DNA of 10,545 bases from a virus. Lineage: Duplodnaviria; Heunggongvirae; Uroviricota; Caudoviricetes. Position numbers and translations under genes: made by a program. The notes beneath the pieces are model-generated. The model was not told the origin of the DNA, did no database searches, and worked only from the letters and a program-made list of their open reading frames with translations. The stretch is from the IMG/VR virus record IMGVR_UViG_2909303794_000003; one strand, written 5' to 3'. Shown in pieces: positions 2,633 through 6,000 of this stretch. Every line of letters starts with the position of its first letter. The stretch's first letter is position 1.

Positions 2633-3033
2633 TGCATAATGAATTAATTAAGATTATTCAGTACTCAATCGACAATCCCTATAAGTATGGTGATAACGAT
2701 TGCAATTTGATTGTACTCCGCATTATTGACCTATTCACTGGCAGTACCCTTGCAAATCGCCAATATACGAGCATTAAAGAGGGGATAGCAGGTCTTAAAA
2801 AAGAAGGATGGGATCATACAGGTCAAATAGTTGAACAGTACTGTGATGAGGTACAACACTTTATAGACGGAGATATCTGGTTAGATCCCGATAACCCCTT
2901 AATTATGGCAGTGGTTGTATCAGGTCGAGTACTTGGGGTGAATGAAAGCCATGATGGCTTTGAATTACACCCAAAACCAATACAGGGAAGATATTTTAGA
3001 GTAAGGAAACAGAAGGAATGGGGAAAAGTTTAG
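2629..3033 (+). CDS. hypothetical phage tail-module protein (134 aa), possible tail-tip assembly protein
   Basis: Track ORF 2617..3033 starts at a GTG; ATG 2629 is preferred (GGAG at 2618-2621, 7-nt spacer, ATGA overlap with the upstream stop). It contains Cys in GDNDCNLIV and downstream His residues. An NlpC/P60-like assignment, as in lambda gpK, is speculation from position and this weak motif only. Confidence 0.45.
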
Positions 3034-6000
3034 GGGGCTTCTTTGGAGCAATAATTACGGCAGTCATTGTCGCTTTGGCGGTTTACTTCACTGGCGGTAC
3101 GGCATTAGCCGCGATTGGCTGGGGGGCTGCGGCAGGTGCTGCAAGCCTTGTTGCAACAAGTATGCTGGGGCAGATTGGCGTTCAGAGTTATGGGGATGTA
3201 ACGGATTCACTCAGCAGGTCAACGAGTCCTACCACTGGATTACCAGTACTGTATGGTGGGCAACTTCCCCATAAAAATGGGGTATCGGGCGGTTCGTTTA
3301 TTCTCACGGGGAGTATTGTCTCATGGTATAACATCCCAAACAGTGATTCACAGTACTTATTCAGTGAACAGGCAATATGCTACGCGGGAACTGAAAAGAA
3401 TATAAACCAGATTTATATTGATAATGAACCAGTATTAGCCGTTCCGGTCACTCAGGATGGTATTGTACCAAAGGCGAATATTGCCAGTAAGTATCAGGAA
3501 TATCTACAACTTGAAGTACGGTTTGGTGGCGATTATACCAGTACTAAATCTCTTGCAAGCCAATACGCCGGGCCGAAGTGGACAAATAAGTTTCTTGGTA
3601 AAGGCATTGTTTCTGTCAGTGCGGTTATTAAAAAAACACAACAATCATTAGAGCAGAATCTTCTTGTGAATGATCAGTTCACGATGACTGTTGAAATGAA
3701 AGGTCAGAGAATATTAGACCTCGTAACAGGGTCAGTACTGGCGACGTCAAATCCACCATCAATTATCTACGACTATCTGACCAATACAACGTACGGGATT
3801 GGAATTGAACCGGGATTAATTAATCTCGATACCTTCCTTGAAACCGCAGCGTATTGTGACCAGATGGAGTATTACGCTAATGGTTCAATTAGCTATCAAA
3901 GCTCGTACAAGGAAAACATTGAAAATATCTGTCAGGTATTTGGCGGTATTATGTATGTACATGCAGGGCAAATCTGTATTACGACGGATCGTAAAACGCT
4001 TTCGGTTGCATCATTCAATGAAAATAACATGTTTGGTGCAGTACAGATCAGTACCAGCGGCGGCACAGACTACTTCAATACTGTTGATGCGAAGTACACC
4101 AATCCAGCCAGTATGTACACGACTGACGTGTTACGCATTCCTTCCGATATTACGATTGATGAGGCAATTCAGCGTGACGGGCAGGTTATTACCCTAAGCC
4201 GTGATTACTCTTGGTGCTATGACGCTGATGTACTGGCGAAGATGGTCAATGTTGATGTACTCAAGGCTAAGTACGCCTTACGTATTGTATCCTTCACCAC
4301 AAGTGAAGGCTGGGATCTGAAGGTATGGGATGCGATCAACGTCAGCAATACTGAACTGAATATTTCAGGGAAGTTTAAGGTACTGTCAAAAGAAGTGGCA
4401 ACCGATCAGGAGAACGTTGGGTACGTTACAATCACGGCAGTTGAAGCCCCTGATGCAATGTACGATGGCGTAGATCCCGGTATCTGGTCACCTGGCGGTT
4501 CAATCCAGTTTCCCGAACTAAGCGTAAAGGCTCCCACGAACCTACAGGCAGTACGCAAAGGTAACACAACAAACGGCTCCCTTGTCGATCTCACATGGGA
4601 TGCGTCACAAGATCCGTGGCTACGGGGTTATTACATCTACTATAAGTTGAGTAGTTCCGGTACTTGGACGTATGCGGGAAGTACTAATACCCAGAAAACC
4701 GACTTTGAACTATTCGGCCTCTCAGACACTGCGGCTTATGACTTTGGGGTTGAGGCATATAACAATCTCGGCCTTACGAGTAACAGACTAACGTTAACGG
4801 GATTAGTGCCGACATATAACTTTGCATTACCTTCCGTAACTGGTGTCGTACTGGCAAATCGCACCGTGGGGCAATATGAAACTGATTCTGCTGATTTCAA
4901 TATCCGTTGGGATAATCAGAAGAATTTAATCGTTAATGGTCGCTCATTTTCTGATTACTTCAAGTACTACACCATTAATATCTATAACGGTAGTGATTTA
5001 ATCGATACATTCTATACGCAGAGCAATACATTCAACTTTACGCTTGAAATGAACCGACTCAGAGTGCGTAAACCTACTATTGGCATTATTGCTCAGGGAT
5101 TCAACAATGGTACTTATTCACAGGAAGTACGAATTACCGTTGAGAATAAACAATGTGGATTAGTGCAGGGTGTTCAGTTCACTGGCGGGTTTAGCAACTT
5201 ATTCGCCTCATGGACTCCATCGACTGAGAGGGATTATGCCGGGGCAGTAGTGAGTATTGTTAATGGTACGAGTACTAAACTCTACACCAGTAATAAACCT
5301 GAATTTGACAGTATACCCAACATTCCAGATGGAGAATATAAAGTTAAGGTCGGATTCTTTGATGTATTTGGACAGGACAATATTCAGTACTCGGCAGAGC
5401 AGACGGTCAGCATTAACAGCAAATACCAGTTTACGGAAGATGATGCAGAACAGATTAATGGAATACTTGATCTCGATGATCGTCTGAATGAGACAATTGA
5501 AAATGCAGTTAATGAAAGTAATGAATACACCAATACGCAAATCTCTACATTGAAAAACACGGTAGACGGAAACACGGCAAGCATAACAAATCTAAATCAG
5601 ACTGTAGCGGATAATGACACAGCACAATCACAGGCAGTTACACAGCTACGTAGTGATGTGAACGGGCAGATTGCCGCGGTTAACCAGCAGATGAGTACAA
5701 AGGCAACTGCAAGCACTGTAGACAGCCAGTACTCATTGTCCGTCAATGCTAACGGTACTGTAGCGGGTATCCGTCTTGTTGCTTCTCAGGGAACGAGTAA
5801 CAACAGTGCTATCTATTTCGCAGCAGATAAATTTATTGTCAGCGGCAGTAGTGCGGCGACAGTAGGCGGTACGGCTCCATTCTCAATCGTGAATGGTACT
5901 ACCTACATCAAAACATCCATGATTCAGGCGGCAAGTATCGGTACTGGTTACATCGCAGATGCAGCGATCACAAATGCGAAAATTGCCAATGCCAGTATTA

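Follow-up and report, generated by a model that had tools for sequence, protein, structure and literature searches.

In phage lambda, the tail assembly protein gpI is encoded by a gene of its own upstream of the host-specificity gene J. In the window, i.e. the whole stretch of 10,545 nucleotides of tailed-phage DNA analysed here (IMG/VR record IMGVR_UViG_2909303794_000003), a sequence resembling the C-terminal half of gpI forms the beginning of a 1067-aa J-like protein, and an IS2 element lies upstream. This raises the question of whether the chain is native or whether two separate genes were merged in this genome. A first-pass annotation of the DNA, which had correctly described the lambda arrangement, left two options open: a natural I-J fusion, or a deletion or frameshift for which the IS2-associated rearrangement would be relevant. 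The features considered in our analysis are collected in Table 1.

Domain layout of the J-like protein

The 1067-aa protein matches PHROG 31 'central tail fiber J' (E=9e-62) and aligns to PHROG 5616 from residue 11 onwards; its N-terminal 100 aa alone returned nothing in a PHROG scan. Pfam searches identified fn3 and Phage_Tail_Tip domains together with a weak Phage-tail_3 match, and in tblastn the C-terminal region matched the corresponding ends of lambdoid J proteins. The hub is followed by an fn3 domain and, at the C-terminus, by a tip fibre region, as in the siphophage hub/central fibre class. Exact-sequence look-up of the protein found no record, and the K. pneumoniae protein P0293 is 99% identical to it.

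In the AF2 model (pTM 0.71), the hub residues ~77–500 reach pLDDT values of mostly 70–92. Foldseek matched this hub to the PDB structures of T5 pb3 (7zqp_b, E=8e-21, TMq 0.62), lambda gpJ (8xcg_F, E=4.5e-15) and the gene transfer agent RcGTA (6tba_8A, E=1.6e-12); further matches were T1, Chi and JBD30, and 8gtc_M was weaker than 6tba_8A. AF2 and Foldseek together confirm the HDII–HDIV hub-domain fold of siphophage baseplate hub/central fibre proteins.

The region preceding the hub has a markedly different composition. Within residues 1–56, Gly and Ala account for 43% and G/A/V/L/I/F/M/W for 80% of the sequence, with a single charged residue, compared with 15% and 43% by the same two measures in the remainder of the protein. 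The Gly/Ala-rich hydrophobic N-terminus ending in LPVLYGG, which the first-pass annotation had noticed, is therefore real. Its description as a hydrophobic stretch of ~90 residues fits only in part: the hydrophobic portion covers ~56 residues, and ~90 is reached by the block, the polar linker and the motif together. Hydrophobic segments rich in Gly and Ala are prone to spurious similarity. AF2 places helices at residues 7–25 and 29–46 with low pLDDT and a strand at residues 77–79 within the motif; with pLDDT below 50 for residues 1–72, the fold of the N-terminal module is not supported by the model.

Table 1 Features of the window around the J-like gene
Feature	Position	Strand	Basis and remarks
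IS2, 1331 bp	992..2322	+	E. coli IS2 copies ~99% identical; bounds the prophage remnant
L-position tail gene for 207 aa (PHROG 2048), 3' part left after truncation by IS2	2323..2632	+	PHROG 2048 match, C-terminal part only
DUF6950 gene, 138 aa, gpK position, intact	2617..3033	+	Pfam PF22262, E=1.5e-10; 16-nt overlap with the start of J
J-like tail-tip hub/central-fibre gene (J / pb3 / megatron type)	3018..6221	+	ORF, 1067 aa; built-in gpI-C-like N-terminus
Gly/Ala-rich hydrophobic block, residues 1–56	3018..3185	+	Composition, hydropathy, AF2 helices, hhalign to gpI 99–~157
Polar Ser/Thr-rich linker, residues 57–74	3186..3239	+	Sequence; hhalign register; disordered in the AF2 monomer
LPVLYGG motif, residues 75–81	3240..3260	+	Beta-strand between gpI-like module and hub domain
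Predicted baseplate hub domains (HDII–HDIV type fold), residues ~77–500	3246..4517	+	AF2 and Foldseek
Fibronectin type III domain, residues 505–586	4530..4775	+	Pfam PF00041, E=1.7e-5, 25.4 bits vs cut-off 25
C-terminal tail-tip fibre domain, best stretch residues 992–1046	5991..6155	+	PF09327 Phage_Tail_Tip, E=2.9e-21

Similarity to the C-terminal half of lambda gpI

Profile and pairwise comparisons placed the likeness to the C-terminal half of gpI, as proposed in the first-pass annotation, above chance. With family profiles, hhalign aligned residues 5–108 of the window protein with gpI 99–209 at a probability of 94.5% (score 53.1, E=8e-8). Controls with block-shuffled columns, which preserve composition and architecture, scored 14.9 ± 2.2 and 14.6 ± 3.2 (maxima 19.1 and 23.1), with 0/120 reaching 53, and a reversed profile scored 17.5. 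Similarly, Smith-Waterman alignment of the N-terminus with the C-terminal half of gpI scored 77, compared with 38.6 ± 6.6 for whole-sequence shuffles (0/2000 reaching 77) and 46.5 ± 7.8 for shuffles that kept hydrophobic block and linker apart (4/2000). The shared stretches are spread over 90 columns: GKSLGGFF against GAKSGGVF at the start of helix 1, FTGGTALAA against FTAGATLAA, and LPVLYG, which is identical at lambda gpI 189–194 and reads IPVVYG at T5 pb3 264–269.

In addition, the best three hits in a profile search of 177,635 PDB sequences were T5 pb3 (264–314, E=0.024) and a pair of lambda gpI chains (E=0.045 and 0.061), all at borderline E-values; full-length gpI (8iyk_I) followed with E=4.9. 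The T5 pb3 match runs unbroken over the motif and the following strands. Further downstream, residues 112–206 of the window protein align with gpJ 22–118 at a probability of only 39.6%, a comparison that may have been weakened by Serratianator gp31, probably no J homologue, in the gpJ N-terminus alignment. Aligned to both lambda proteins, the chain runs colinearly from a gpI-C-like module into gpJ-like sequence and the hub fold shared with T5 pb3, lambda gpJ and RcGTA.

One could argue that the N-terminus is a generic hydrophobic anchor or signal-like segment, whose likeness to gpI is convergent and amounts to composition and a short hub-docking strand motif. The sequence is indeed of low complexity and Gly/Ala-rich, and its hydrophobic part is plastic, with one helix, two or none in different family members. 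Composition-adjusted BLASTP against lambda gpI was not significant (E=0.29), and BLASTP against gpI and gpJ yielded non-significant pieces only. Pfam Lambda_tail_I (PF06805) did not match the N-terminal 100, 130 or 150 aa at E<=10, nor 11 family N-termini at the same threshold, where only membrane-protein-family noise appeared. However, the signal depends on residue order, dropping from 53 to ~15 upon shuffling of columns, and is rarely reproduced even by shuffles that preserve the segments. The match extends from the helix-1 start to the LPVLYG motif, gpI ranks within the top three of the PDB, and the position relative to the J-like sequence is colinear with lambda. We consider convergence unlikely, and the sequence comparisons lead us to conclude that the N-terminal ~110 residues are homologous to the gpI C-terminal half (TAPI-C), beyond composition.

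The homologous part comprises the gpI C-terminal module, namely Gly/Ala-rich hydrophobic helices and a (L/I)P(V/I)xYG(E) strand. The ubiquitin-like beta-grasp domain, which ends in a conserved Gly (G96 in lambda), is absent from the 1067-aa protein, and Met1-Gly2 of this protein aligns with lambda Ala95-Gly96 at the end of the Ub-like domain.

Single-chain layout among relatives and the position of IS2

The same chain is encoded by an intact K. pneumoniae prophage, with 0 amino-acid changes in residues 1–180. An intact relative occupies 4.22–4.24 Mb of K. pneumoniae CP128444. Dozens of listed full-length Enterobacterales homologues share the N-terminal start, and so do distant Roseobacter, Pelagibacter and Vibrio phages; in DCP80, CRP-406, HTVC202P and Vibrio phages, the N-terminus is laid out in the same way and an I gene is not annotated. 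For all full-length representatives at E<1e-30 (12/12), the alignment starts at residue <=13 of the query and residue <=10 of the target, and 96/130 full-length representatives have a hydrophobic segment of TM grade at the N-terminus. Across 15 proteins at 25–63% identity to the window protein, and also across 30 homologues, P76 and G80 do not vary. A first homologue search (400 aa) gave 10 proteins, mostly partial, and was replaced by exhaustive representative and profile searches. As the YG motif varies (LLGG, VVFG, VTYG, IAYG and others), regex counts of it are crude; the family statements therefore rest on the hydropathy count and HMMER alignment coordinates.

The gene neighbourhoods are congruent with this picture. 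In all those inspected, the DUF6950 gene lies directly 5' of the J-like gene (L003, L016, L018 and CRP-406) and an I gene is absent. The tail genes further upstream in the window were lost to IS2, and the gene order was read from the intact relatives L016 and L018: TMP, DTP (pb9 B-domain, PHROG 1302), the 207-aa PHROG 2048 protein, DUF6950 and J. Homology between the window and L016 begins at window position 2323 (L016 9306), within the gene at 8992–9615. A search for an I-like motif or ORF in all frames of L016 5600–10100 and window 2333–3100 found none, and a hidden I-like ORF upstream was rejected on this basis. In the DUF6950 protein at the K position, no JAB domain was detected; lambda gpK matches DUF6950 weakly (E=0.067), and a PDB sequence search with the DUF6950 protein returned nothing meaningful. 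Megablast of window positions 2300–6300 against complete E. coli genomes gave no match.

As an alternative, a recent deletion or frameshift, maybe linked to IS2, could have accidentally joined separate I and J genes in this genome. Lambda and T1-like phages do encode I and J separately, and the 5-mers flanking IS2 (GTCAG and ACTTG, with the ends read from the sequence) are unlike; without a target-site duplication, a rearrangement nearby did occur. However, IS2 ends 695 bp upstream of the J-like gene with the intact DUF6950 gene in between. The gene that it truncates is the second one upstream of J, and neither DUF6950 nor the beginning of J is affected, so that the relevance assigned to it by the first-pass annotation falls away. 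Between the K and J positions there is no separate gene that could correspond to Lambda_tail_I; a single ORF abuts DUF6950, in the coupled, overlapping layout of the relatives. This ORF has its own ATG at 3018, an AAGGA Shine-Dalgarno sequence 10 nt upstream and an in-frame stop 7 codons 5' of the ATG, and the other two frames contain stops as well. Homology to relatives is unbroken over 2323–6222, and codons 1–110 differ by 10 synonymous and 0 amino-acid changes from L016, by 57 and 15 from L018, and by 50 and 13 in a third comparison, which indicates strong purifying selection and a translated N-terminus. Together with the intact K. pneumoniae prophage and the layout common to near and distant homologues, these sequence data already refute an accidental merging of two genes, which we regard as extremely improbable. 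A start further downstream (e.g. Met49), which would leave the hydrophobic segment outside the protein, could be read from the low AF2 confidence at residues 1–72 and from the few homologues that begin near the YG motif (P0008, P0150, P0171 and P0257), but it has hardly any chance of being correct given the substitution pattern, the conservation of the N-terminal sequence down to ~30% overall identity, the stops in the other frames and the Shine-Dalgarno sequence at ATG 3018.

Judged from these genomes, the single chain is the family norm and not a special event, an outcome that the first-pass annotation had itself named as refuting its proposal. The fusion is older than, and unrelated to, the IS2 event upstream. 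The idea of a natural I-J fusion holds insofar as the single chain is native; what precedes J is TAPI-C only, without the Ub-like half, and the neighbourhoods inspected in relatives hold no separate I gene either.

Known tail tips and a possible role of the module

The closest sequence counterpart, TAPI-C of lambda gpI (residues ~97–223; PDB 8IYK, 8XCG and 9E7M), shows the same order of elements as the window N-terminus: a Gly-rich start (GAKSGG in lambda, GKSLGG here), two hydrophobic helices, a polar stretch and the LPVLYG strand, which in gpI docks on the J hub domains. In both cases, gpI-C lies immediately N-terminal to J-like sequence, by gene order in lambda and within one chain here. 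Inside the tip, residues 101–223 of gpI form the helices H1 and H2, the plug and beta-strands (PMC11101478; PMC10721106; PMC12617516). However, lambda makes gpI as a 223-aa protein of its own, which starts with a Ub-like domain and is encoded between K (JAB and NlpC/P60) and J, whereas the window has neither a Ub-like domain nor a separate I gene, JAB was not detected in the protein at the K position, and module and hub form one covalent chain. The linker is also shorter, with ~18 aa compared to ~30 aa in gpI.

A second counterpart is the megatron of RcGTA (g15) and roseophage R4C (PDB 6TBA and 8GTC), which has the same architecture and gene order as the window family. In RcGTA, an L-like hub gene and a small K-position gene (peptidase) precede the large hub/fibre protein, and the prophage around the window-type gene, as seen in the intact relatives L016 and L018, looks RcGTA-like. 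Megatron and window protein both carry a hydrophobic helical module at the extreme N-terminus (residues 1–56 here). Residues 1–46 of the megatron constitute the iris/penetration domain, which closes the tail channel and for which insertion into the outer membrane has been proposed (PMC7296036; PMC10276861). The megatron module differs in size (~46 aa and one ordered helix, compared with ~75 aa and two predicted helices), and the C-terminal parts differ as well (a fibre-binding domain in the megatron; here, fn3 and a tip fibre domain like that of lambda). The N-terminal profile did not retrieve the megatron chain from the PDB sequences at E<=10; the match to 6tba_8A is at fold level.

T5 pb3 (PDB 7ZHJ and 7ZQP) gives the best structural match for residues 77–500 and also the best PDB sequence match across IPVVYG and the strands after it. 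Like the window protein, it holds plug and hub on a single chain. In pb3, the gpL-equivalent HDI is at the N-terminus and the plug is inserted in HDII (PMC10721106), whereas the window family encodes the L-position protein on a gene of its own and has the plug-like module at the extreme N-terminus. Most phages make the hub subunit from a single polypeptide, and lambda from up to three (PMC13243795). TAPI-TAPJ fusions were already described in some prophages by Iyer, Burroughs and Aravind in 2006 (PMC1779556); those comprise the whole TAPI including the Ub-like domain, whereas the window family has TAPI-C only.

Drawing on the observed homology, colinearity, conservation, family-wide gene order and independence of IS2, we favour, with a probability of roughly 80%, the interpretation that the N-terminus is a native, conserved module of a single-chain tail-tip protein, homologous to TAPI-C and with a plug/penetration role. 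The lineage has the gene order distal tail protein, L-position protein, DUF6950 at the K position and [gpI-C + J], with a module of two Gly/Ala-rich hydrophobic helices, a linker/plug region and the LPVLYG strand. The predicted helices 7–25 and 29–46 would be the counterparts of gpI H1 and H2 and may form a membrane-inserting or channel-occluding element, and the linker 57–74 corresponds by position to the gpI plug region (159–175) and the next loop, to which a plug role may be transferred from lambda. A trimeric gpI plug in the tail-tip lumen that touches the tape-measure C-terminus is known for lambda only (PMC11101478; PMC12617516; PMC10721106). Because of the homology with gpI and the analogy to the RcGTA/R4C megatron's iris/penetration domain and to the plug of T5 pb3, the module would most likely be present in three copies within the lumen of the hub trimer, shutting the channel and holding the C-terminus of the tape measure. 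Receptor binding would then open the hub and release the hydrophobic helices for insertion into the host outer membrane. The module probably serves in this way as both channel plug and outer-membrane insertion element. The window prophage itself is a remnant, and the tail-tip protein may therefore not assemble into anything here.

A more far-reaching proposal builds on the 2006 prediction that gpI is cleaved by the JAB domain of gpK after the conserved terminal glycine of the Ub-like domain. Since the Ub-like half is absent, JAB was undetected in the DUF6950 protein and Met1-Gly2 falls at the predicted JAB cleavage site, the lineage might represent a natural 'pre-processed' gpI in which TAPI-C alone is functional. 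The Ub-like/JAB pair of lambda would then be a lineage-specific assembly add-on that delivers and subsequently releases TAPI-C, and the GTA megatron's iris/penetration domain, gpI-C and the window N-terminus would be one homologous module, encoded by its own gene or on the hub. We offer this tentatively, at somewhat less than even odds.

The locus is an ordinary addition to the known single-chain tail-tip design, as in gene transfer agents, and not IS2 damage. The suspected lesion can be removed from its description: the J-like gene is intact with its original N-terminus, and the IS2 event amounts to a truncation of the L-position gene and the loss of upstream tail/head genes, not to a reshaping of the tail-tip protein. 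For annotation, J-like or "phage tail tip fiber" proteins with a Gly/Ala-rich hydrophobic start followed by (L/I)P(V/I)xYG carry gpI-C in cis, and in phages with such a module an absent I gene is expected. In addition, the family provides a modest handle on the old prediction of gpI cleavage by the gpK JAB domain, as the lineage of the window appears to work with the would-be cleavage product only.

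Layout of the window and start of the J-like protein

Judged by its domain matches, the large ORF encodes a J-type tail-tip protein. Within its first 56 residues, 43% are Gly or Ala, 80% are small or hydrophobic and only one is charged; the corresponding two shares in the remainder of the chain are 15% and 43%. Residues 57–74 are polar, and the motif LPVLYGG occupies residues 75–81 (nt 3240–3260). The first-pass annotation had described a hydrophobic stretch of about 90 residues ending in this motif; the description holds, while by composition the hydrophobic block itself spans only about 56 residues.

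Features of the window and domain matches of the 1067-aa protein
Feature	Position	Remark
IS2 element	992–2322	
Tail gene, 3' remnant	ends 2632	
DUF6950 gene	2617–3033	intact
Large ORF	3018–6221 (+)	1067 aa
PHROG 31, central tail fiber J		1067-aa protein, E=9e-62
Pfam fn3	residues 505–586	1067-aa protein
Pfam Phage_Tail_Tip	residues 992–1046	1067-aa protein
Pfam Phage-tail_3		1067-aa protein, weak match
Lysozyme gene	7497–7940	minus strand
150-aa ORF	7978–8430	

The ATG is preceded by a Shine-Dalgarno sequence (AAGGA) at a distance of 10 nt and by an in-frame stop at a distance of 7 codons. Over codons 1–110, the window differs from the intact K. pneumoniae prophage CP128444 (L016) by 10 synonymous-only and no amino-acid changes, from the Pluralibacter prophage (L018) by 57 and 15, and from the Enterobacter roggenkampii locus (L003) by 50 and 13, respectively. 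Between the whole protein and its L016 copy there are 16 differences, none before residue 181. By this sequence evidence, the start is real and the N-terminal region translated.

Further downstream, the 150-aa ORF lies between the lysozyme gene and downstream phage genes, at the position of a SegE-type GIY-YIG gene in L003 and L018. No gene of this type is called there in L016, whose homology to the window ends at 7921. This ORF may represent a mobile homing-endonuclease insertion.

Relationship to lambda gpI and gpJ

The N-terminal segment had been proposed to resemble the C-terminal half of lambda gpI. Standard tools miss this resemblance: Pfam Lambda_tail_I gave no match at E≤10 to the window protein or to any of 11 family N-termini, and composition-adjusted BLASTP between gpI and the window protein returned only E=0.29. 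Lambda gpI contains VAGAKSGGVFQIVLGAAAIAGSFFTAGATLAAWGAAIGAGG and later NVLPVLYGEMRVGS; the window counterpart of the motif region reads GLPVLYGG. The Smith-Waterman score between the window N-terminus and gpI is 77, a value reached by none of 2000 whole-sequence shuffles (38.6±6.6) and by four of 2000 shuffles keeping the architecture of hydrophobic block and linker (46.5±7.8). An alignment of the 11 family N-termini, compared by hhalign with a profile built on 12 gpI proteins of diverse origin (lambda, T1, and phages of Pseudomonas, Rhizobium, Burkholderia, Moraxella, Proteus and Serratia), matched with a probability of 94.5% (E=8e-8, score 53.1, 90 columns), placing window residues 5–108 on gpI 99–209. 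Controls with permuted column order but preserved composition and block architecture scored 14.9±2.2 and 14.6±3.2 (maxima 19.1 and 23.1), and the reversed profile scored 17.5. When the N-terminal profile was searched against all 177,635 distinct PDB sequences, the best match was the T5 hub protein pb3 (residues 264–314, IPVVYG..., E=0.024), ahead of two chains of the lambda "Tail tip assembly protein I" (E=0.045 and E=0.061). Altogether, the pairwise, profile-profile and PDB tests support homology of the segment to the gpI C-terminal half, bearing out the proposed likeness. That hydrophobic low-complexity sequence inflates the similarity scores is improbable in our view.

The subsequent region resembles gpJ. 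A weaker alignment (probability 39.6%, pairwise E=3e-4) places window residues 112–206 on lambda gpJ 22–118, in the predicted place and register, and the T5 pb3 alignment is contiguous over the motif and the next strands. An AF2 model of residues 1–500 (pTM 0.71) shows low-confidence helices at 7–25 and 29–46, a disordered linker, a strand at 77–79 and a confident domain (pLDDT mostly 70–92). Its best matches among PDB structures, with E-value and query TM-score, were T5 pb3 (7zqp_b; 8e-21, 0.62), DT57C (8hqz_A; 4.2e-20, 0.63), Chi (8vjh_A; 4.5e-17, 0.55), JBD30 (8rk3_b; 3.0e-16, 0.56), lambda gpJ (8xcg_F; 4.5e-15, 0.43), T1 (9l9p_S; 1.5e-13, 0.45) and RcGTA (6tba_8A; 1.6e-12, 0.49). The window chain therefore equals gpI (~97–~212) joined to gpJ (from ~20 on); apart from the termini made by lambda's I/J split, nothing is without a counterpart.

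Single-gene layout among relatives and the IS2 element

The N-terminus is kept in all full-length close homologues. An exhaustive search of 1.84 billion cluster representatives gave 938 matches, and in all 12 full-length matches with E<1e-30 the alignment begins no later than query residue 13 and target residue 10. A hydrophobic N-terminal segment of transmembrane grade is found in 96 of 130 full-length representatives, and P76 and G80 are invariant among proteins 25–63% identical to the window protein. A profile search returned 242 proteins at E≤1e-10; the matches listed come from Enterobacterales and are full-length, at about 1067–1470 aa (mostly 1067–1100 aa), and a protein from K. pneumoniae shows 99% identity. 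Among cultured phages, the nearest relative is Escherichia phage DCP80 (30% identity), which starts with MAVVAIGVIVAAASAGAAAAAAGL and carries downstream VLPLVYGEQRVGS, closer still to the VLPVLYGEMRVGS of lambda gpI.

None of the relatives checked has a separate I gene. In Roseobacter phage CRP-406, the tape measure gene is followed by genes for a hypothetical protein, "minor tail protein L" and DUF6950, and then by one for a tail protein that shares the N-terminal layout. No annotated I gene precedes the J-like genes of Pelagibacter phage HTVC202P and of two Vibrio phages; in the Vibrio phages, the N-terminus is shorter and has one helix. The intact prophages L016 and L018 carry tail tube, tape measure, distal tail protein, a 207-aa PHROG 2048 protein, DUF6950 and J, and the I-like motif is absent from every reading frame of L016 upstream of J. 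The suggested natural I-J fusion is thus correct in substance, but it represents the norm of the family.

The IS2 copy is exactly 1331 bp long and shares ~99% identity with E. coli copies. Its flanking 5-mers differ (987–991 GTCAG versus 2323–2327 ACTTG), so there is no target-site duplication, and in intact L016 the ±10 kb around the J-like gene contain no counterpart of window 1–991. IS2 therefore caused or bordered a rearrangement. This suggests that an IS2-mediated deletion or recombination removed the head genes, most tail genes and ~105 codons of the 207-aa gene at the L position. The rearrangement is ~700 bp from the J start with an intact gene between; from 2323, within the 207-aa gene, the window again matches the intact prophage, without a break through DUF6950 and J. 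An origin of the fusion by deletion, frameshift or IS2 activity, as initially considered, is refuted by this continuity and by the layout of the relatives. On four lines of evidence, an accidental single-gene arrangement was rejected: the shared N-terminus, the intact prophages lacking I, the real start and the uninvolved IS2.

Several other records showed individual peculiarities. In L003 (10001–13204), the homologous J-like gene is split among three ORFs (670, 202 and 176 aa), with an IS3-family transposase ~3 kb upstream; here, too, a copy of this prophage type is decaying. Within homologues P0146–P0279, the N-terminal module occurs in a two-helix form (YG motif at ~75–80) and a one-helix form (~48–50). 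A minority of J-like proteins begin at the IPVVYG strand without the hydrophobic segment (e.g. P0150, P0171, P0191, P0257, P0275). The partial E. coli protein P0008 starts with MMYRILYLVVQVQPHGLPVIYGG, unrelated sequence replacing the hydrophobic N-terminus just before the motif, and probably reflects truncation, rearrangement or a faulty gene call. The 141-kb DCP80 record (PQ671644) is filed under Straboviridae/Tevenvirinae (Gaprivervirus), yet has a siphophage-type tape measure and J-like tail-tip module; its taxonomy line or the record itself merits a second look.

Probable function and the missing ubiquitin-like half

In lambda, three gpI chains occupy the tail-tip lumen and retain the C-terminal tape-measure helix. 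From residue 101 onward, gpI comprises the hydrophobic, predicted transmembrane helices H1 and H2, a plug (159–175) blocking the channel, and beta-strands threading the gaps between gpJ hub domains by beta-augmentation. Upon LamB binding, the hub domains shift, the plug becomes disengaged and density for H1/H2 vanishes; insertion of these helices into the outer membrane has been proposed (PMC11101478; PMC10721106; PMC12617516). J-like megatron proteins carry an N-terminal iris/penetration domain (residues 1–46 in RcGTA, 1–45 in roseophage R4C), which shuts the channel and has been proposed to make a pore in the outer membrane; in RcGTA, the hub gene is followed by the peptidase gene and then the megatron gene (PMC7296036; PMC10276861). 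By analogy with these solved relatives, residues 1–~110 of the window protein are probably a cis-encoded plug/penetration module.

The solved megatron proteins of GTA and roseophage already display such a single-chain architecture, and literature from 2006 and 2023 anticipated it. Iyer et al. (2006) noted I proteins (TAPI) fused to J proteins (TAPJ) in some prophages (PMC1779556), gpL, gpI and the gpJ N-terminus jointly correspond to T5 pb3 (PMC10721106), and a hub subunit consists of a single polypeptide in T5 and the majority of phages but of up to three in lambda (PMC13243795). The structural modules of L016 (1–17000) and L018 (1–16700) look RcGTA-like, with a Peptidase_S78 and Phage_capsid protease-capsid fusion, a 917–1006-aa Peptidase_S74 protein and a pb9-like distal tail protein. 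Further downstream in L018, a protein of 97 aa weakly matches GTA_holin_3TM.

Of gpI, the window protein contains the C-terminal module alone. The alignment pairs G2 of the window protein with the conserved glycine G96 at the end of lambda gpI's ubiquitin-like domain, where the JAB domain of gpK is predicted to cleave gpI (PMC1779556). In the 138-aa DUF6950 protein at the K position, Pfam detected no JAB domain, and a PDB sequence search with this protein found nothing. Lambda gpK (L001 1277–1876) matches DUF6950 weakly (E=0.067) at residues 60–83, the start of its NlpC/P60 domain. At the K position, DUF6950 may represent a divergent cysteine peptidase devoid of JAB. The gpI-C-only N-terminus, the G2/G96 match and the lack of a Pfam JAB match in the K-position protein are suggestive of a lineage lacking both the ubiquitin-like domain and its presumed protease, in which the would-be cleavage product would be encoded directly on the hub. 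The window lineage thereby offers a modest new angle on the ubiquitin-like/JAB question.
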